From an uncultured bacterium (lineage in GTDB: Bacteria; Cyanobacteriota; Cyanobacteriia; Cyanobacteriales; JASJDA01), in the NCBI GenBank assembly GCA_964458305.1, contig CAYWIH010000008.1:1-63128 (forward strand): 63,128 nucleotides of DNA, given 5' to 3'. Shown piece by piece: positions 38,172 to 47,750 of this stretch (position 1 is its first letter; each line of letters opens with the position of its first letter). Under the pieces are notes generated by a model that had not been told where the DNA came from, searched no databases, and saw nothing but the letters and a program-made list of their open reading frames with translations. A program made the translations under genes and the position numbers.

Positions 38172-38579
38172 ATGATTATATTACTGGAAATAGCCGATCG
38201 ATCTGACGATCTCGAAAAAATAATCAAAATTAAAAATCCGACATGGTCGATAGTAGAAGAATCTCTGAAAAACTTAAATTACAATAATAAATATACTGCC
38301 ACGATCGAAGCTGACAATGGTTCTTATATGGGGATTGTAATCGGCGAACATAATAAATATTTAGTTGGCAGTTTTTTAGCAGGGAAAGGAAGATTTATTT
38401 TAGTCGATTCTCCAGATGAAGAAAACTTTATTACTCTCGAAATTGGCGGGAAACATAGCAAATTTGCCGCCCACGAATTTGTAGATTTAGAAACTCTTTT
38501 AACAGTTGCAGAAACATTTTTTAAAACAGGAGAATGCGATCGCAGATTTGAATGGAAAGAACGAGGAGCAAATTGTTAG
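38172..38579 (+). CDS. Probable Imm1-family immunity protein
   Basis: IKNPTWSIVEESLKNL start, YMGIVIG and LLTVAETFFKTGECDRRFEW end resemble Imm1 proteins as recalled; AT-rich. Confidence 0.6.
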   Translation: MIILLEIADRSDDLEKIIKIKNPTWSIVEESLKNLNYNNKYTATIEADNGSYMGIVIGEHNKYLVGSFLAGKGRFILVDSPDEENFITLEIGGKHSKFAAHEFVDLETLLTVAETFFKTGECDRRFEWKERGANC

Positions 38580-38897: not shown

Positions 38898-39995
38898 ATG
38901 GAAGAAGACAGGGCTTACTGGTTGGCGTGGTCGCAAATATCTGGAGTCGGGCCGGTTTCACTAAAAAAAATTGACAAACATTTTGGTAATTTAGCAAAAG
39001 CTTGGCAGACACCAGCAGAAAATTTAGCAGCAATTGCAGGATTTGGCAGCAAATTAATTAATAAAATAAAACAAGCTCGATCGCAAATTATACCCGAAAA
39101 ATTACTAAGAGAATATAGTCAAAAAAATCCCTATTTTTGGACGCCAGCCGATCGAGAATATCCGCGATTGTTATTAGAAATTCCCAGCCCTCCCCCAGTT
39201 TTACATTATCGCGGCCAAATTAAAGAAGAAGAAAATCAAGGAATCGTTCCTTTAATCGGCATCGTCGGTACTCGCAAACCCACAGAATACGGTCGTCGCT
39301 GGACGCAAAAAATCACTAAAACCCTTACTCAGCATGGTTTTGGCATAGTTTCCGGCTTGGCTGCGGGGATCGATGCAGTCAGCCACAATGCTTGTCTCGA
39401 AGCCAACGGTAGGACGATCGCGGTATTGGGTACGGGTACGGATCTTGTTTATCCTTACAGCAACCGCAAACTTTACGATCGAATCGGCAATTCTGGTTTA
39501 ATTTTAAGCGAATATCCGGCCGGCACGAAACCCGATCGGGGTCATTTTCCGGCAAGAAATCGGATTATAGCGGGGCTTTGTCGTGCTATTTTGGTTATGG
39601 AAGCACCAATTAAATCGGGGGCTTTAATTACGGCGCGTTTGGCTAACGATTTTGGTCGCGATGTTTACGTTTTACCCGGTTCGTTAGATAATCAACAATG
39701 TTTCGGCTGTTTGGAATTATTGAATCGAGGAGCTAATTTAATTTCAAGCGAAACCCGTTTGTTAGAAATGTTAGGAACTATACCCAAACTCGATCCGCAA
39801 CCAGTTGCTTCATCTGTTAATTTACAACCAGAATTAGCCGCAGTTTTACAAGTAATTACTCCTAGTTCCACTCCTTTGGATTTAATTGTCAAAGAAACGG
39901 GTTTGCATAGTAGCATTGTTGCCAATCGTTTGTTGGAATTAGAATTATTAGGTTTGATCTCTCAATTACCTGGAATGCGCTATCAAAGATGTTAG
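38898..39995 (+). CDS. dprA: DNA-processing protein DprA
   Basis: IVGTRKPTEYG, VSGLAAGID, FPARNRIIAGL, EAPIKSGALITA and a C-terminal winged helix. Confidence 0.95.
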   Translation: MEEDRAYWLAWSQISGVGPVSLKKIDKHFGNLAKAWQTPAENLAAIAGFGSKLINKIKQARSQIIPEKLLREYSQKNPYFWTPADREYPRLLLEIPSPPPVLHYRGQIKEEENQGIVPLIGIVGTRKPTEYGRRWTQKITKTLTQHGFGIVSGLAAGIDAVSHNACLEANGRTIAVLGTGTDLVYPYSNRKLYDRIGNSGLILSEYPAGTKPDRGHFPARNRIIAGLCRAILVMEAPIKSGALITARLANDFGRDVYVLPGSLDNQQCFGCLELLNRGANLISSETRLLEMLGTIPKLDPQPVASSVNLQPELAAVLQVITPSSTPLDLIVKETGLHSSIVANRLLELELLGLISQLPGMRYQRC

Positions 39996-40257
39996 TTATT
40001 GCGATCGAACTGTAATTAAAGATTTAGTTAAATTACGATCTTTTAATATTGAAGATTGGATTAATTATCGGATTTTTATTGGTTGTCGGCTCAGTAATAT
40101 TGTTTAATAGAATTTGATGCCGTATATTTTTTTTGTCCCGATCGAATTAAGCGGCAAAAATCCGTTAAATCTCCTAATAATTGAATCAATATAAACTATC
40201 TCCCGATCGACGGGAAATGCATTAAAAATAGTAAAGCTTAGCAATTAGAAAAGAACG

Positions 40258-40494
40258 ATGAAAGCAAAAATCAAAATAGCCATACTGGAAAAAGCCGCTA
40301 ATAAAATAGAAGCGATCGCCGCTCGGGTTTCGAAAACAAGCGATCGCAATACTATTAATTTAGAGGTAAACGAAGTAATCGCCGACTTAGAAACGGCGAT
40401 CTTAGAAATGAAAAATATTTACAAACAAAAACAATTAAGCAAAAAAGAAGATCGAGAAATAGAAAGATTAAAACCAGCTTCCAGCCAAATCTAA
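40258..40494 (+). CDS. Small hypothetical helical protein
   Basis: ATG ORF with plausible coiled-coil composition, convergent with the patatin gene. Confidence 0.5.
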   Translation: MKAKIKIAILEKAANKIEAIAARVSKTSDRNTINLEVNEVIADLETAILEMKNIYKQKQLSKKEDREIERLKPASSQI

Positions 40495-40504
40495 AAATAA
40501 GATT

Positions 40505-41692
40505 TTAAGGCTCTAAAAAACCATCAAAATCTGCTATTTCTACTTGTTCTTTAGCAACAGCCCGACCGATGGCAGATAAAGCATCAATTTGGTCGATACA
40601 ATCGAGTCCGGCTACTTTTTTGGGATCTATATAATCCAATCCTAATTCCTCAAAACGTTCTTTTGACAATTCGGTTGTATAGCGATGATAAGTGAGCAAA
40701 TTAAGTTCTTCATCGATTCCTTCTAGATCGAAAGAATTGGATTTTGCAGCGCATTTTTTTAGGGATTTAAGTTGTTTCATGCTGTAACTTGTTGGCAAAC
40801 AAGCCTTAATCATTTCGCGATCGACGCTTTGAGATTTGGGCATTTTACTAATAATTTTCATCAGTACGTTTTGCTGTACGTTAGCGTCTTCCATTAAAGT
40901 AGCGACTGCATAATTTGCCCAATTAATTAAGTTATATTCCCTTGCTTTTCCTGGTGGTTCGACTCCTTCTTGACTGAAACCAGTACCTACTGAAATTGTT
41001 AAAATTTTATCCGCTCCTGCTTCCCAGTCTATGCCATATTCTTGCAGAGTTGCTTCGATAAATAAGCGAAAAGAGGGATTATTAAACATACTCATTCCCC
41101 CATCAACAAAGTCGTAACTTTTACCGTCTACTTGAAAAGAACAAGGGGGAAAAAAAGTAGGTGCGGCCGAACTGGCTCTAACTATTTTCCAAAGGGGAAT
41201 CTTACTATTAATTTGGAAATTTTGATTCTGAGGATGGTTGATAAAAAACCAATCTGTTTGGGTGACTACGTTTTTAGTAACGATCATCAAAAATGTTTTA
41301 ATTTTATCCGATCCCAACAGAGTATTTTCGCCATAAACTTCTTTTAATTTCCGCTCCAAAGGGCCGGGATTGTATTTAGACCAAAACTTACCAAATAACC
41401 AATTGCGAGTAAACATTTCCTCGCCAAAATTGCGATAAAGATCGAGAATCGGTTGCACTTTCATCCCCGTAGCCAAAGCTGCAGCAATTAAAGCCCCAGT
41501 ACTGTTACCGCCAATAAAATCGAAATAATCGGCCAGGCAATTCCAACCCTTATTTTGGCTGCAAATTAACCTTTCTATTTCTAACAAAATCTCAGCAGCA
41601 ACTATGCCACGAATTCCACCCCCATCTAAAGAAAGCAAGCGTTTGGGGCGATCGCAAGGTAGATTGTTTTTAAACTCTGTTAAAGCATTCAT
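40505..41692 (-). CDS. Patatin-like phospholipase
   Basis: LSLDGGGIRG oxyanion loop, GNSTG nucleophile elbow, ASSAAPTFF and catalytic DGG. Confidence 0.92.
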   Translation of the reverse strand: MNALTEFKNNLPCDRPKRLLSLDGGGIRGIVAAEILLEIERLICSQNKGWNCLADYFDFIGGNSTGALIAAALATGMKVQPILDLYRNFGEEMFTRNWLFGKFWSKYNPGPLERKLKEVYGENTLLGSDKIKTFLMIVTKNVVTQTDWFFINHPQNQNFQINSKIPLWKIVRASSAAPTFFPPCSFQVDGKSYDFVDGGMSMFNNPSFRLFIEATLQEYGIDWEAGADKILTISVGTGFSQEGVEPPGKAREYNLINWANYAVATLMEDANVQQNVLMKIISKMPKSQSVDREMIKACLPTSYSMKQLKSLKKCAAKSNSFDLEGIDEELNLLTYHRYTTELSKERFEELGLDYIDPKKVAGLDCIDQIDALSAIGRAVAKEQVEIADFDGFLEP

Positions 41693-41695
41693 TGT

Positions 41696-44218
41696 TTAAG
41701 TGTCGATACTAGTAGCAATTTGTACTGGAGAAAGGTAAGGATAAGGAATTTTTCCCTGTTTTTCTAGTTCGCTATTGCGTCGCTCGATCTCCGTTGCAAT
41801 CAGGTTTAATTTAGCTATAAATACGGCGTGAACTCCGTGTAATTTTTCAGCTTCTGGGGCGGGTAAATTGCCGATCGGATGTAAAGAATGGGTCGAAAGT
41901 AAGCGAGAGAAAAAGGTTTGAAAATGTGCGTCTTTATAAGGTTGTAAAGCTTCCTTCAAGACATAATCTAAGCTGACATCTTCCGTACCTTCGGGAATGC
42001 CTTTATAAAGAACGTTGGGACGATTGGGGATGTAACCTAGATATTGATACTGAGAAAAATTGATCGCCGAATGTTGCGCGCTGGCAAGAAAAATAATATT
42101 AGTAAGAGTACCGATTAAAACTTCTTTGCTGGCGATATTTTTAGGAAAACCAGGAACAGATCCTTTTTCGGGATCGGCAGTTTCAGCGGCCCAATTTTGA
42201 ATCACACTATCTTCAGCTACAGCGCGATCGCGATTGTATTCGATCTCGACGACATTAGTAACATATTCTTTAATCGCATTCCAAATTTTAAACCCGTCAT
42301 CGCGAAAATAAAAATCTTCAACACCATCCGAACCTGCTTCGTCAAACCCCCGGGTTTTTAATTGTTCGGGAAAACTCATTTTCTCAAAATCCCAATTTTC
42401 CCAGAGTTTGAGAATCAATTCTAATCCTCCACCAGTTCCAGTAGCGAAGTTAGGATCGGTAAAAGGTGCGACTGGAGAAATTAAAGTTTGACGGGCTAAA
42501 TAATTAATTCCCAGACTTCCTTTAAAATGAGGTGCGAGTATTTGTCCGATCGCGTGAGTTTTGGGAAATGAGTTGTGATGGCTGATGACAAAAGGTTCGA
42601 TAACCAAATGAGTTAAGGCTAAATGATAGACAAACTGATGGTATTGACAGTCAGCACATTGAACGTGCATTTTGGCGAGAATATATTTATTCGCTGGGGA
42701 ATTTTTAGTATAAATTTGGTTAGGATTGAGTCGGATGCCGAGTAAATTGAGTTGAGATTTACCATTTTCGAGCAATTCTCGATATATCAACACGTATGGC
42801 TCGTAAAATACCTTATTTTGTAGTTCTTTAATCCCTTTTAACTCTTGATAATCGAGATAAAATAAGCGTTTGGCGGCAATTAATCGATCGATCGATTCTC
42901 CTTGAGGTGTAGTTAAACCAGCTAAGTCTTCAGGAATGTCTTTTTTATCTTGACAAACTGAGATCCGCATCGGGTTGACACCTTGAATGAATTGACGACA
43001 AAATTCCGCATCTTCTCGCCAAATTTCGGGAATTTTAACCGGAGGTTTCACCCAAGGATCGCTGTAATAAGCCGTCCAAGGATCGCCTTTTGCTGCTAAA
43101 ATCTCTTCTAGTCGAAAGAAAAATCCGGCTTGAGAGTAGACATATTCGATAGTTCTTTGCAATAATGATGCTGCTTGTTCAGGTGGTATTTGTTGTCCGG
43201 GGGGAAGACCTTTAACCATCGGCGGTAATTTTTCTAAAGGCAGATCTGGCTTGTGTTTGAGACGGGGATATTTTTCATATTCGTATTTTTGCTCTACTCC
43301 ACCGGGTACTTGTTCTACTACTGTCATCACTTGTTTTTTGGTATATAGTAGAAGCTTTTCGAGGAAATCGAATTTTCGTTCCATTTCCATCTCTTCAGTC
43401 GGAGGTAGCCTATTTTCCCCAGAATCTAAACTTAACAATAAAGAAACAACTATTTCCCCAGAATTACCCGAATCTAAACTTAAAGTCTTACGAGTTAGTT
43501 TACCTGCGACGATCTCGCGAAGTTCGATCTCCGTACTACCGATGAGATCGTCTCGACCGAAATTAGCATCCCAAATACTAAAATAGAGTTTTTCGTTACT
43601 CTCAATTAGATCGAAAGAGAATTTTTCTTGCCAAATTGGTTGACGGGTGCGATAAATGACTGGAGACTCTTGAGGTTCGCCATTATCTAAAATTACGATC
43701 GCATAAGGATCGAGAAAGAGTTGGCTGGTTTTTAGCAAATCTATCCCTTGAATTAAGGTTACTTCTAATTTACCGATCGTCGGATTGAAATAAGTATCGA
43801 GGGATTTGATTGCTGTTTGATATGTTGCTTGTTGAATTTTAGCAACTTTTTTAGCCCCAGTGCGATCGACATCGTTTTCGCAATACCAACGCACGATCGT
43901 TTCATTTTCGTCCTTAGCGGACATTTGAACCGTTAAAGAACTCTTTTTTAAAGAACTAATTAGGGGTTCGAGGGGTACTGAGGAGTATTTTAAAATATAA
44001 TTTTCGTCGTCTCGTAATTCGAGGGTATGTTCGTATTCTCTCCCTTGAATTTTACACGATCGCACCGCCCCTACTTCATCTTTTCCGGGGGGGTTGAGGG
44101 TCAAAGATTCGTAAATATGCCACCATTTTAGGGTTTCGGGGCCGAAAGGTCGAAAAACTTGCCAAACTTGGTTAATAGGTGCGCGTACAATTCCGGTTAT
44201 ATTTGCGCCAGGAATCAT
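41696..44218 (-). CDS. Lipoxygenase with N-terminal SRPBCC/START and C2 domains
   Basis: SRPBCC: IVRAPINQVWQVFRPF...VGAVR. C2: LEVTLIQGIDL...DPYA...PIWQEKFSF...IWDANFGRDDLIG. LOX: WREDAEFCRQFIQGVNP, HQFVYHLALTH, INYLARQTLI, FRDDG, AQHSAINFSQY and C-terminal TSIDT. Confidence 0.9.
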   Translation of the reverse strand: MIPGANITGIVRAPINQVWQVFRPFGPETLKWWHIYESLTLNPPGKDEVGAVRSCKIQGREYEHTLELRDDENYILKYSSVPLEPLISSLKKSSLTVQMSAKDENETIVRWYCENDVDRTGAKKVAKIQQATYQTAIKSLDTYFNPTIGKLEVTLIQGIDLLKTSQLFLDPYAIVILDNGEPQESPVIYRTRQPIWQEKFSFDLIESNEKLYFSIWDANFGRDDLIGSTEIELREIVAGKLTRKTLSLDSGNSGEIVVSLLLSLDSGENRLPPTEEMEMERKFDFLEKLLLYTKKQVMTVVEQVPGGVEQKYEYEKYPRLKHKPDLPLEKLPPMVKGLPPGQQIPPEQAASLLQRTIEYVYSQAGFFFRLEEILAAKGDPWTAYYSDPWVKPPVKIPEIWREDAEFCRQFIQGVNPMRISVCQDKKDIPEDLAGLTTPQGESIDRLIAAKRLFYLDYQELKGIKELQNKVFYEPYVLIYRELLENGKSQLNLLGIRLNPNQIYTKNSPANKYILAKMHVQCADCQYHQFVYHLALTHLVIEPFVISHHNSFPKTHAIGQILAPHFKGSLGINYLARQTLISPVAPFTDPNFATGTGGGLELILKLWENWDFEKMSFPEQLKTRGFDEAGSDGVEDFYFRDDGFKIWNAIKEYVTNVVEIEYNRDRAVAEDSVIQNWAAETADPEKGSVPGFPKNIASKEVLIGTLTNIIFLASAQHSAINFSQYQYLGYIPNRPNVLYKGIPEGTEDVSLDYVLKEALQPYKDAHFQTFFSRLLSTHSLHPIGNLPAPEAEKLHGVHAVFIAKLNLIATEIERRNSELEKQGKIPYPYLSPVQIATSIDT

Positions 44219-44333
44219 CTTCTACCCTCCAAAGTAATAGAGTTTGTCTGTTCACTACTACTATTACTATTCGGATAGTTTGGTTATTTTTTCACAAGTT
44301 TGGCGAGTTTAGCAATAATTCTTTACAAGATTG

Positions 44334-45443
44334 TTAAATTGTCGATACTCCTCCTGCAACTGGAGAAGTTCCCATTAATTTCAACCAACGATAATTAGAA
44401 GCAAATGCCGAGGCAAAACTGGGATAAACTTGGTAATTAACTCCAAATTCTCGAGCAACTTCAGCAACGATCGGGGAGATATTACGATAGTGAATGTGAC
44501 AGATATTAGGGAAAAGATGGTGAACGGCTTGATAGTTTAAACCGCCGACGTACCAATTTAAAATTGGATTGTGGGGAGCAAAATCTGCGGTAGTTTTGAG
44601 TTGGAAAACGGCCCATTCATCGTCAATACTGTTGGATTTTGGATCTGGTTGGGGAAATTCTAAGCCTTCTAAAACATGGGCTAACATGAAGATTTCACAA
44701 GCTACTAAACCGTAACTCATATAGGCGATCGACAAACCAATAAATATTTGTAGCGGCCCGTATCCTACTAATAAAGGGATGCCGACAAAAAAGCCCAGAC
44801 CTAACAATCTCATTCCCCAAAAAGCAATTAAATCGGAGACTTTCAATTTTGGTATTTTATTACCGAGTAAATCGCCGCCAACAACAACGAATCTCAATTC
44901 GTTTAAATACCAGTAAAAAGGAATAATTAAATAGATAAACCAAATAAATAAATGTTGGAAACGCTGATGGGGTTTATAAATATTATTCGGCGACATTCTC
45001 ACCAAGCCATCGCCGTGAATTTCTGCATCGTAATCTTTTAAATTAGTATAATTATGGTGCAAAACATTGTGGCGGAATCTCCAGTGAAAATTAGATACGC
45101 CAATAAAATCGTAACTCAAGCCGATCGCTTTATTAACGGTAGAATTGTATGAATAAGCCCCGTGATTGGCATCGTGTCCTACACTCATACCACAACCAGC
45201 TATTCCTAACCCTAAAACAACGCAACCTAATGCTTTTACCCACATTGGTGAGGGTACGAAAATAACAAAAGCCCAAGAACTCAAAATCCAGCTAAATATA
45301 ATTACTGTTTTGAAATACATTGCTGGATTATCTTTTTGTTTAATATTATTCTTAGTAAAGTATTCCTCTACTCGACGATTTAATTCTTTTCTAAAGCCGA
45401 TATTTTTAGAAAAAGTTACTCTTGGTTTTTGGTTCGTTTCCAT
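44334..45443 (-). CDS. desD: Membrane fatty acid desaturase, delta-6 (DesD) type
   Basis: His boxes HDANH, HNVLHH and QAVHHLFP; GFRKELNRRVEEYF...DNPAMYFKT and EIHGDGLVRMSP closely resemble cyanobacterial DesD. Confidence 0.85.
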   Translation of the reverse strand: METNQKPRVTFSKNIGFRKELNRRVEEYFTKNNIKQKDNPAMYFKTVIIFSWILSSWAFVIFVPSPMWVKALGCVVLGLGIAGCGMSVGHDANHGAYSYNSTVNKAIGLSYDFIGVSNFHWRFRHNVLHHNYTNLKDYDAEIHGDGLVRMSPNNIYKPHQRFQHLFIWFIYLIIPFYWYLNELRFVVVGGDLLGNKIPKLKVSDLIAFWGMRLLGLGFFVGIPLLVGYGPLQIFIGLSIAYMSYGLVACEIFMLAHVLEGLEFPQPDPKSNSIDDEWAVFQLKTTADFAPHNPILNWYVGGLNYQAVHHLFPNICHIHYRNISPIVAEVAREFGVNYQVYPSFASAFASNYRWLKLMGTSPVAGGVSTI

Positions 45444-45773
45444 CAGCAATTCTTTGGTTTAATAATAGAGAAAAAACAGCAGCACAAACTAGAATACTAA
45501 CATTAACCTAGCGATCGATTAGTGTTAATAATTCAGCCAACAAATGTATTGCCAACGACAGATAAAAATTGGCTATTTTCAGCTTTTAGCTTTAATTTTG
45601 CAAACAAATATTAGTATTACACGAAGAAGTAATTTAGTAAAGCAATACCGCTTCGCTACAAGGGAGAATTTTTTTTTAGTAAAGATTTTTCTAAGTTTAA
45701 AATTAATTAATTTAATTTGAAATTGCTAGAACGAATTTAATATTGTTCGATCGCTCCTTCCCATAGCCCGATC

Positions 45774-47750
45774 TTATGTTTCAATTTCGAATTCTTCAGG
45801 ATCGATTCCCCAATTAACCCATTTTATAGCTTCTCTTGCGGAATTTAAATTGGGTGGTACTCGCAAAGCATGAATTTTGTCGGTACTGGGGCAGGTCATT
45901 TGTAGCAGATAAACGGCTTCAGAGTCTATATTTGAATCAATTCTTAATAATTCATATTCTCGCCAGGTATTGATTACTACTGCTTGCAATTCTTGGCAAA
46001 TTTTGTCGTAGCCGATACCTTGAATTAATGCTCGTTTTAATTCGGCATTAGTTTCGGATAATAGCCATTCGCTTTGCCATTTTGTTGGGTGAATTGTACC
46101 ATATTTTTCGGGTAACAAGACCCCCCGATAAGCATATATTGAAAAACCATCCCTATATTCAATAGCTGGAGATCCTTCTGAGTGTAATTGATTTTGAGAA
46201 TTAAAGGATAATTTACGAGGTCGATCGCCAATTAAACATACTTTTGGTAAACCGAATATATCTTCGCAATTTTCTCTTAATTCTAAATAAGCTTTACCCA
46301 AAGGATCGATTTTATATTTAAGTTCGGAAATACAAAAATCTGTAAAACTGAGATAGGGATCGTAGTGATTTCTATTCATCCACAAATAATCTTGAAAAAG
46401 ATTATACTTTCGATCGATTAAATCTCTTGTTTTTGAATATATTGCATGAGATTGAGCGCGATTTTTTCCCTCGACTTGTTCGTCTATTTGATTTGGTGCG
46501 TTACAAAATTTATATAGTTTTTCAATGAGGGACTCATCTAATCGATCGTGCCAATGAGAAGGAATATATTTTCCTTTGGATGTTACCCATTTATTTTGCG
46601 ACCAATCGCTATTTTTAGCTAATATTTGGTATTTTTCAGAAGGGCTAGAATGGAAAATAATTTCCGGTTCTGCTTCTCCTAATATTTTATAAATAGTTTT
46701 TACAGTTTCGGCTGCTTTTTTTCTATCTATAGGTTCGGTAGAAAAAATAATTTCACGCCATTTTTCTCGATAAATAGTAGTTAAAGTTTGTTTCTCTGGA
46801 GGGACTTTATTAATAAACGCTTTTAACTCAATATTCGTATCCGATGGAATATCATAAAAAGTATATTTTTGTAATTGTTCGATTTGTTCGTCTGTTAATT
46901 CTCGATAGATTTTTTTAGACCCAATTCCTTTAATTAATGTTTGCTTTAATTTCCGATTTGGTTCGTTTAATAACCAATTCGTTTGCCAATCTTTATAAGG
47001 CAATTTTCTGTATTTTTCTGGCAACCAAACACCTCGATCGGCATAAGCAGAAAAACCATCATTATATTCTATCGCTGGTGTTGCTTCAGCGTGTAAATTA
47101 CCTTTATTATCGAATAAAAGTTTCTTAGGGCGATCGCAAATTAAACAGACTTCTCGAAAAGCAAAAACTGTTCCGCAATGTTTATGTATTTCTACGGTAA
47201 ATTGTTTGAAAAAATTATCTTCTATATTTAATTCGGAAAAACAAAAATCGTACCAAGCGCAATATGAAAGTAAACTATCATGGTTCAAAGCGTCATCAAA
47301 TATTTTAATATAAGGGTCGTAATTTAAGGGTTCGATTTCTTTTAAAAATTTATCTTTTATCTCTTGATATAATACTTCCCATATTTCGCGAACTAAGTTG
47401 TCTAATTTACTATCGTAAATATGTAATTGAATATCGAGTCCAATTATTTCTTCTGATTTTATAGAATAGATTCTTCTTTTTACGGAATTAATCTCCTTGA
47501 CAATTTTAGATTTAAATTCACTGCTATTTTTTTTATAGTTCTCAAGATTTTGATTTAAATCTTTTGCCAAACCATAAGGACTATCAAAAAAGAGTATTTT
47601 GGGTTTGGGAAACTCAACTAATTCGTAGAAATTTTCAATAACTTCTCTTGCTTTTCCTCGGTTACGAGGTGCGGTATAAAAGATAATATTGCGCCACTTT
47701 TCTCGATAAAAAGTAATAGATTCTTTTTGTGCTTCAGTTAATTGAATCAT
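45774..47750 (-). CDS. Hypothetical protein with a tandemly duplicated DUF6745-like domain
   Basis: YREKWR...DRP..L...LH.E..PAIEY.DGFS.YA.RGV.LPEKY occurs twice; C-terminal MTCPST...HALRVPP. Confidence 0.75.

Follow-up and report, generated by a model that had tools for sequence, protein, structure and literature searches.

Lipoxygenases (LOXs) are widespread in bacteria, where little is known of what they do for the cell and of where their substrates come from. In eukaryotes, the logic that leads from a lipase to a LOX is textbook knowledge: animals combine cPLA2 with 5-LOX, plants use patatin- or DAD1-type lipases together with 13-LOX, and diatoms rely on a wound-activated lipase and LOX. 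The locus discussed here raises the question of whether a bacterium may keep such a cascade in neighboring genes. It lies on a 63,128-nucleotide (nt) stretch of DNA from an uncultured cyanobacterium (contig CAYWIH010000008.1 of assembly GCA_964458305.1), which we call the window. Three co-oriented genes follow one another on its minus strand, encoding a DesD-type fatty acid desaturase, a LOX that is fused to N-terminal SRPBCC and C2 domains, and a patatin-like acyl hydrolase. An interpretation made beforehand from the letters alone (the sequence-only reading) had taken this trio for a self-contained system that supplies, releases, and oxygenates polyunsaturated fatty acids (PUFAs).

A survey of related loci separates a general feature (lipase plus LOX) from a local synteny (the desaturase). 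The pairing of a lipase with this kind of LOX is a recurrent, facultative functional association. Our preferred reading, to which we give a probability of roughly 0.5, is that SRPBCC-C2-LOX and patatin, the core of the locus, make up an oxylipin-forming module of two genes that happens to be parked beside desD. We set out the two core proteins, afterward move on to their relatives and to the desaturase, and end with the reactions that the pair may carry out.

The lipoxygenase fusion and its patatin neighbor

The LOX gene (41696-44218, minus strand) encodes a protein of 840 amino acids (aa). Its catalytic domain (residues 399-840; 41699-43024, minus strand) matches the Pfam Lipoxygenase family PF00305 over residues 399-816 (207.4 bits; cut-off, 23.6), and 5-LOX in the PDB at 3.5e-52. 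H527, H532, H716, and N720 align with the HQTITH and SAQHAAVNF motifs of human 5-LOX, and the free C-terminus aligns as well, the window protein ending two residues past the aligned one. We take these residues (His-x4-His, His, Asn, and the C-terminal carboxylate) to be the iron ligands; judged from this alignment, the iron site is canonical and the enzyme looks active. The LOXs characterized from cyanobacteria are mini-LOXs and catalase-related heme-LOX fusions (Nostoc, Anabaena, and Acaryochloris) as well as the Cyanothece LOXs. The window enzyme belongs to the same catalytic family and phylum (PDB chains of the 5med type match it at 7.6e-46) but differs from them by its rare SRPBCC(-C2) N-terminus and by having no catalase-like partner. 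Neither a catalase nor a peroxidase is found among the genes that neighbor the trio, as had been noticed at the outset.

The approximately 150 N-terminal residues match PF10604 (Polyketide_cyc2) with 26.7 bits, just under the cut-off of 27.4 (residues ~11-143; 43790-44188, minus strand; E 7.7e-6). The same Pfam family matches 19 of the 19 aligned members of the LOX family at E<=0.01, the best E being 2e-14, and a profile of the domain matches the SRPBCC protein 7tmu in the PDB at 1.7e-7 and also Bet v 1 and PYR/PYL structures. START proper (PF01852) gives no match in the LOX N-terminus, even at E up to 10. The domain had at first been called START, a name that holds at the level of the SRPBCC/Bet v 1 superfamily and fails at the level of the START family proper, where PF10604 takes its place. 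The domain profile resembles the ligand-binding proteins of PYR/PYL/RCAR and Bet v 1 type as well as bacterial SRPBCC proteins. The window domain differs from PYR/PYL/RCAR and Bet v 1 in being fused to an enzyme, and the matches are weak (E 1e-7 to 1e-3).

The C2 domain that follows (residues 149-246; 43481-43774, minus strand) reaches 59.1 bits with PF00168, for which the cut-off is 22, and matches the C2 domains of extended synaptotagmin-2, dysferlin, synaptotagmin-1, and cPLA2-delta in the PDB, down to 7.5e-10. Of the aspartate motifs that bind Ca2+ in C2 domains, it has DPY and WD..(R/K)DD, and it shares with its relatives a D-A-N at the place of the D-x-D in loop 3.

Directly downstream, the letters ACA separate the LOX stop codon TAA from the ATG of the patatin gene (40505-41692, minus strand), a gap of 3 nt, and the cytoplasmic LOX and the patatin of this genome are predicted from that spacing to be translationally coupled. 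The patatin has 395 aa and matches Pfam PF01734 (92.3 bits; cut-off, 27.7). DGGG at position 23, GNSTG at 62 (with Ser64), and DGGM at 197 leave the catalytic motifs intact, and the enzyme, too, looks active. Residues 20-205 (41078-41635) form the catalytic domain, after which comes a conserved, subfamily-specific C-terminal extension, homologs aligning over approximately 96% of the length of the window patatin. A terminator-like hairpin with a T-run lies 3' of the gene (40198-40218, minus strand), a consensus match only. All gene calls used here are calls of open reading frames (ORFs), made without a gene finder. The layout, the gaps, the ribosome-binding site, and the patatin motifs described in the sequence-only reading are all present when checked by ORFs, Pfam, and motifs. 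The host genome measures 5.0 Mb and is 99% complete (the window is its contig C8); it holds one LOX, one patatin, and seven genes of the FA_desaturase family, so that its sole LOX and its sole patatin adjoin each other.

A patatin of this kind also invites an explanation in terms of defense, in which a CapV-like patatin and the LOX would form an anti-phage or abortive-infection pair that destroys membranes when triggered. The window patatin has the fold of CapV, the cGAMP-activated phospholipase of the cyclic oligonucleotide-based antiphage signaling system (CBASS), together with the motifs GGGxRG, GxSxG, and DGG; its nearest solved structures are CapV-type patatins (7.5e-25), and its best matches among defense models are phospholipase effectors (PADLOC PDLC00758 at 185 bits, NCBIfam CBASS_lipase at 144 bits). 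Moreover, related patatins pair with a protein of three TIR domains and WD40 repeats (TIRx3-WD40) in two loci, L047 and L069. Nonetheless, we consider this explanation highly improbable. The 144 bits fall short of the cut-off of 200 of the CBASS CapV model NF041079, which marks a distant homolog, and the window patatin departs from CapV in its C-terminal region, approximately 130 aa that are specific to its family. In the 99%-complete genome we found no SMODS cyclase (PF18144; other cyclase families were not searched), and no CD-NTase or sensor gene occurs among the neighbors of the locus, which read as housekeeping: DprA, thioredoxin, an aminotransferase, DUF6745, DUF445, a UbiE-type methyltransferase, and UvrD. 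Those PADLOC matches that the neighbors do give are generic (UvrD to GajB, DprA to ShosA). The best orthologs of the window patatin (52-57% identity), which lie in another taxonomic family (f4), likewise have housekeeping genes around them, among these an ABC ATPase, a GT2 glycosyltransferase, and a bilin reductase. With a CapV score below its cut-off, no SMODS cyclase, and such neighbors, the original suggestion of a phage- or damage-triggered defense is left without positive evidence.

The TIR-containing pairs are an observation in their own right. L047 (13683-19123) and L069 (7710-11597), found in a Calothrix genome and in G026, conserve a patatin gene with a TIRx3-WD40 gene after it. This looks like a conflict or defense pair.

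Recurrence of the pairing across a rare family

How far does the association of LOX and patatin extend beyond this one genome? A LOX match is present in 73 of the 401 genomes sampled from the phylum, and the N-terminal fusion in five of them, namely the window's own genome (G000), G306, G100, G136, and G330. Altogether we assembled 26 distinct SRPBCC-LOX loci: 21 from a scan of 185,579 species genomes, three new ones from metagenomes (where the scan for the fusion returned six loci), the window, and G306. The SRPBCC-C2 part is matched by 19 protein clusters in a collection of 5.8 billion sequences, and NCBI labels such proteins either "SRPBCC family protein" or "lipoxygenase family protein".

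The family tree falls into two clades. Clade I comprises the window, other cyanobacteria, Sericytochromatia, Myxococcota, and Enhygromyxa, with a C2 domain in most members; the C2 domain is confined to part of this clade, is lacking from clade II, and is absent from most members of the family. In clade II (L044-L055), all 12 of the 12 aligned members carry Met at the position of the first iron-ligand His (H527 of the window LOX), and clade II may therefore represent LOXs with an altered metal site. Two of its loci share a further feature: a protein of ~550 aa without a Pfam match is encoded co-oriented and directly downstream of the LOX (L053:12329-13993 and L054:12535-14175), the two proteins being 62% identical. 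A curious relative of clade I is P0261, an 882-aa NCBI protein named [quoted passage not shown], which is encoded on a contig of 41.6 Mb. It has the architecture PF10604-PF00168-PF00305, is 38% identical to the window LOX over ~825 residues, and nests within bacterial clade I in a FastTree phylogeny; it reflects either gene transfer into the lamprey or contamination.

A patatin lies no more than 3.5 kb from the LOX in seven of the 26 loci, and the arrangements vary. In the window it begins 3 nt downstream of the LOX and in L035/L084 approximately 240 nt downstream. In two further loci, other genes stand between LOX and patatin: a VOC and an SDR gene in L036, whose co-oriented patatin is found 2.2 kb downstream, and a tandem-SRPBCC gene in L055, whose patatin is 1.6 kb downstream. 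L042 has one patatin ~270 nt downstream and a second copy 5 kb upstream, whereas that of L040 (Pfam 115 bits) is divergent and directly upstream. In L052, a 693-aa protein that scores at the Pfam cut-off follows at 68 nt downstream, and a 271-aa patatin (121 bits) lies 3.3 kb upstream. For 23 loci, we clustered every ORF that lies up to 10 kb from the LOX; patatin was the most recurrent neighbor after SRPBCC proteins. In addition, a GDSL lipase sits directly upstream of the LOX in L046. Two candidates were left out of the count: the patatin of L047, which is 5.7 kb from the LOX and of the type that pairs with the TIRx3-WD40 gene in L047 and L069, and L039, which has merely a 75-aa patatin-like fragment.

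Such proximity would hardly be met by chance. Based on 17 patatin genes in 45 Mb (seven genomes), 0.09 loci with a patatin are expected, and the probability of four or more is 3e-6. As a control, 30 non-fusion cyanobacterial LOX loci (1.5-kb flanks) gave no patatin (0/30), so a lipase neighbor was found only with the SRPBCC-LOX family and not with the other cyanobacterial LOXs. The linked patatins, furthermore, belong to three or more groups that have diverged very far from one another, and are spread over both LOX clades. Patatin clade A (window, L035, and L036) is separated from clade B (L042 and L055) by branches of 1.9-2.8 substitutions per site, and the types in L040 and L052 are more distant still. 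Because the linked patatins are so divergent and occur in both LOX clades, the pair was apparently put together more than once. The coupling of patatin and LOX that had been proposed from the window alone therefore recurs well above chance and with several unrelated patatin types. An absence of conserved linkage in other genomes had been named beforehand as the outcome that would speak against the proposal; such an absence is what the comparison shows for the desaturase, and not for the patatin.

Critically speaking, a number of points weigh against the two-gene module. No patatin was detected in 19 of the 26 loci, a count obtained with a hidden Markov model (HMM) insensitive to distant patatins and with neighbors only partly scanned with Pfam. 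Patatins of clades A and B are mostly found away from any LOX. Family f4, home of the best patatin orthologs, has a LOX in none of six genomes (0/6), and clade-B patatins occur in 39 of the 401 genomes, none of them near a LOX match by reading of the tables. Even in the sister species, the 3-nt spacing is lost (the gap is ~240 nt). The Poisson figure given above overstates the significance of the pairing because the loci are related to one another, and the coupling of lipase and LOX is one read from gene order. RNA contigs, to which we return below, may contain DNA, and none covered the patatin gene or the LOX-patatin junction. Finally, the negative patatin counts are soft because the first screen of neighbors missed a patatin. 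That screen, a tblastn search with desaturase and patatin queries at 1e-5, covered four loci and found none, whereas Pfam detects a patatin beside the LOX of G136. The HMM built from clades A and B is likewise weak on distant patatins, scoring 19.7 bits for that of L040 and 19.3 bits for the 271-aa protein of L052, and missing the 693-aa protein of L052.

Could it be, then, that there is no functional link at all and that the three genes adjoin by descent and chance, each working alone? The loci without a detected patatin and the many patatins of both clades that are unlinked to LOX would fit this view, as would a desaturase linkage at chance level (see below). It has to contend, though, with seven loci of 26 where 0.09 are expected, with gene orders that differ and patatins of no fewer than three unrelated types, with the empty control set, and with the 3-nt stop-start spacing in the window. 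We regard this explanation as very unlikely.

The desaturase next door

The third gene, desD (44334-45449, minus strand), precedes the LOX gene by a spacer of 115 nt (44219-44333, minus strand), in which GGAGG (44228-44232) sits 7 nt before the LOX ATG. Its ORF encodes 371 aa from a TTG; the start is more probably the ATG at 45443, two codons inside. The protein matches Pfam FA_desaturase PF00487 with 100.8 bits and has the His boxes HDANH (at 92), HNVLHH (at 127), and QAVHH (at 307), the Q in the third box being, as we take it, the mark of front-end desaturases. In length and in this Q-type box it resembles cyanobacterial DesD, and it is 50-64% identical over at least 95% of its length to proteins that are named linoleoyl-CoA or delta-6 acyl-lipid desaturase in annotations, those of Calothrix and Limnospira included. 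NCBIfam offers no equivalog for DesD. Since a tblastn search at 1e-3 finds no paralog in the window's genome and the homologs carry these names, the gene is the only one of DesD type in the genome, which bears out the identity it had been given. Of the other six desaturase-family genes, NCBIfam names only CrtR; the remainder are two of ~350 aa, two of ~272 aa, and one of 408 aa. From size and family alone, they may include DesA, DesB, and DesC.

The cascade as it was initially conceived would make the trio one self-contained unit, in which desD supplies the PUFAs, the patatin releases them, and the LOX oxygenates them. In favor of it, the genes are co-oriented, the spacer is short, and no terminator-like site is found in the desD-LOX spacer of the window. 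Two species of the genus share the arrangement: that of the window and a sister species represented by L035 (genome G402) and by L084, which is 97% identical to L035 at the nt level. From G401 (96% complete), the genus's third species, LOX, DesD, and a close ortholog of the window patatin are all missing. On the other hand, DesD stands beside the LOX in these loci alone among the 26. This amounts to a single independent adjacency, and at least one is expected by chance with P ~0.14. In other carriers of the fusion, DesD is unlinked and far off in a cluster of desaturase genes (G306, to which the placement of the window gene beside LOX-patatin stands in contrast) or was not found (G330, G100, and G136). 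The joint absence in G401 may result from a single deletion of neighbors, and the assembly is broken there: it ends 480 nt after dprA, with the DUF6745 homologs on other contigs. The LOX would not depend on delta-6 products either; 18:2 and 18:3 should be available because the genome has two genes of DesA/DesB size and two of DesC size, as assigned by size and family. The trio as a conserved unit is hence not borne out, its desaturase neighbor being limited to one genus and at chance level.

In L035/L084, a strong, terminator-like hairpin of -26.4 kcal/mol (z -4.3) with a U-run directly follows desD (L035:1727-1815); it is missing from the shorter spacer of the window, and the leader before the LOX is conserved. 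Together, the sister-species hairpin and the conserved leader suggest separate transcription units. A larger fold of the LOX leader (44140-44340, minus strand; z -3.1, with the Shine-Dalgarno sequence paired) was rejected as a conserved element, its long-range stem being lost in L035/L084. A hint of expression comes from metatranscriptome contigs of 97-98% identity, which cover desD and extend 96-168 nt past its stop codon. One of them, X16 (44166-44978), bridges the spacer and reaches 53 nt into the LOX gene, which lends the three-gene cascade some support, and an RNA piece internal to the LOX gene (42554-42754) occurs in run X18, from another study. These contigs leave most of the LOX gene uncovered and are silent on absence of expression. 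Probably, desD forms a unit of its own that is expressed better, the lineage of the window having some read-through. Its linkage to the LOX is lineage-specific and desD, probably transcribed largely alone, does not belong to the system in general. All in all, we find the self-contained three-gene cascade unlikely. As the sole delta-6 desaturase of the genome, DesD may still shape the PUFA pool seen by the LOX.

A further point in favor of the cascade comes from Microcoleus, whose LOX is unrelated to that of the window. In this genus (g3; L090:5097-8102 and L009-L030), a non-fusion LOX of 593 aa is convergent to a gene of the FA_desaturase family (383 aa) in 12 loci, all of one genus. The best NCBIfam match of that desaturase is the Bacillus-type Delta(10) DesB, with 182 bits and below the cut-off. 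The case provides a second, weak hint of LOX and desaturase genes settling together.

The remaining observations on the locus can be dealt with in short. The nearest named relative that we found for the window genome is a metagenome-assembled genome of a Prochloraceae cyanobacterium, and the window DNA is present in stromatolite and microbial-mat metagenomes. A search of 39900-46000 against Rfam gave no match at E<=0.1, and scans for promoters and terminators returned sites no more frequent than in shuffled sequence. An 18/20-nt repeat (41691-41710 and 44330-44349) spans the stop codons of LOX and desD, at approximately the level expected by chance in 6 kb. Upstream of dprA, a 135-aa ORF (38172-38579, plus strand) shows a weak Imm1 match (E 7e-4, below cut-off), and upstream of desD lies the gene of a 658-aa DUF6745 protein (45774-47750, minus strand).

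A possible route to oxylipins

How might the two-gene module work? The patatin would deacylate membrane glycerolipids and so free polyunsaturated C18 fatty acids. The C2 domain may bring the LOX to the membrane, the SRPBCC pocket may hold a lipid substrate, product, or regulator, and the LOX would dioxygenate the freed fatty acids to hydroperoxides, the entry to oxylipins.

Other recurrent neighbors of the fusion are in line with this route. Tandem-SRPBCC proteins adjoin the LOX or are fused to it in frame in nine of the 26 loci. Aldo/keto reductase genes lie by the LOX in three loci (L031, L037, and L086), genes of the reductase type more broadly in L031, L036, L037, and L086, and a peroxiredoxin gene adjoins it in L038. 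Such genes (aldo/keto reductase, SDR, VOC, and peroxiredoxin), together with the extra SRPBCC proteins at the loci of the family, fit a small oxylipin pathway.

The fusions themselves deserve mention. A tandem-SRPBCC is joined in frame to SRPBCC-C2-LOX in Coleofasciculus H7-2 (L036:9068-12526) and Tolypothrix FACHB-123 (L037:9047-12529), giving proteins of 1152 and 1160 aa, respectively, and further fusions of this kind (1144-1152 aa) turned up in the search of a large collection of protein clusters. In Oscillatoria PCC 10802, the gene upstream of the LOX (L042:8902-9879) encodes sigma-70 regions 2 and 4 with a C-terminal SRPBCC; the LOX of this locus is seemingly frameshifted near residue 50.

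The order of the two reactions might also be the reverse. The C2-docked LOX would then oxidize PUFAs that are still esterified in the membrane, and the patatin would excise the oxidized chains, be it for repair or for the release of oxylipins; mammalian 15-LOX/PEBP1 and iPLA2-beta provide an analogy. The presence of C2 and SRPBCC on the LOX itself fits an enzyme that works at the bilayer more than one that takes up free acids, and the peroxiredoxin and reductases named above fit the handling of lipid hydroperoxides. The genomic evidence for a link between LOX and patatin applies equally to both orders, and sequence cannot tell which reaction comes first. Most family members, however, have no C2 domain, yet lipase neighbors occur among them at L046, L052, and L055. 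We see the reversed order as a tentative alternative and a less than likely one, and keep the two-gene module with release before oxygenation as our preferred reading.

A more far-reaching idea concerns the moment at which the pair would act. LOX and patatin may constitute a latent, ligand- or Ca2+-gated device for membrane-lipid peroxidation in mat-forming cyanobacteria. Upon wounding, lysis, or grazing, the C2 domain would dock the LOX on the thylakoid or plasma membrane, and patatin and LOX would jointly turn the delta-6-rich PUFAs of the cell into oxylipins for chemical defense or as a signal to kin, with the SRPBCC pocket as built-in sensor or lipid chaperone. We deem this quite unlikely as it stands; if true, bacteria would have in this pair an equivalent of the cascades that wounding sets off in diatoms and plants.

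The window pair and the eukaryotic cascades share several features. Both combine an acyl hydrolase with an iron lipoxygenase and place a membrane-targeting beta-sandwich domain on the enzyme; the C2 of the window matches that of cPLA2-delta and the synaptotagmins, and the catalytic domain shares the iron ligands of 5-LOX. Unlike in eukaryotes, the enzymes are encoded by adjacent bacterial genes, a true C2 and an SRPBCC domain replace the PLAT domain, and no FLAP-like or AOS/HPL partner is found at the window. In the portion of the literature open to full-text search, which included 10.1101/2022.06.21.497025 and did not cover subscription journals, we came across no description of an SRPBCC-C2-LOX, a LOX-patatin pair, or a bacterial desaturase-LOX operon. 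What is new here is the bacterial gene-pair form of the lipase-LOX logic, with an SRPBCC-C2-LOX as its oxygenase.

For cyanobacteria, the recurrent pairing of a rare LOX family with acyl hydrolases offers a concrete and testable oxylipin pathway. The SRPBCC-LOX family would bring its own lipid- and membrane-binding domains to this pathway, and extra SRPBCC proteins and reductases adjoin it. The finding thereby points to candidate enzymes for oxylipins derived from delta-6 PUFAs.

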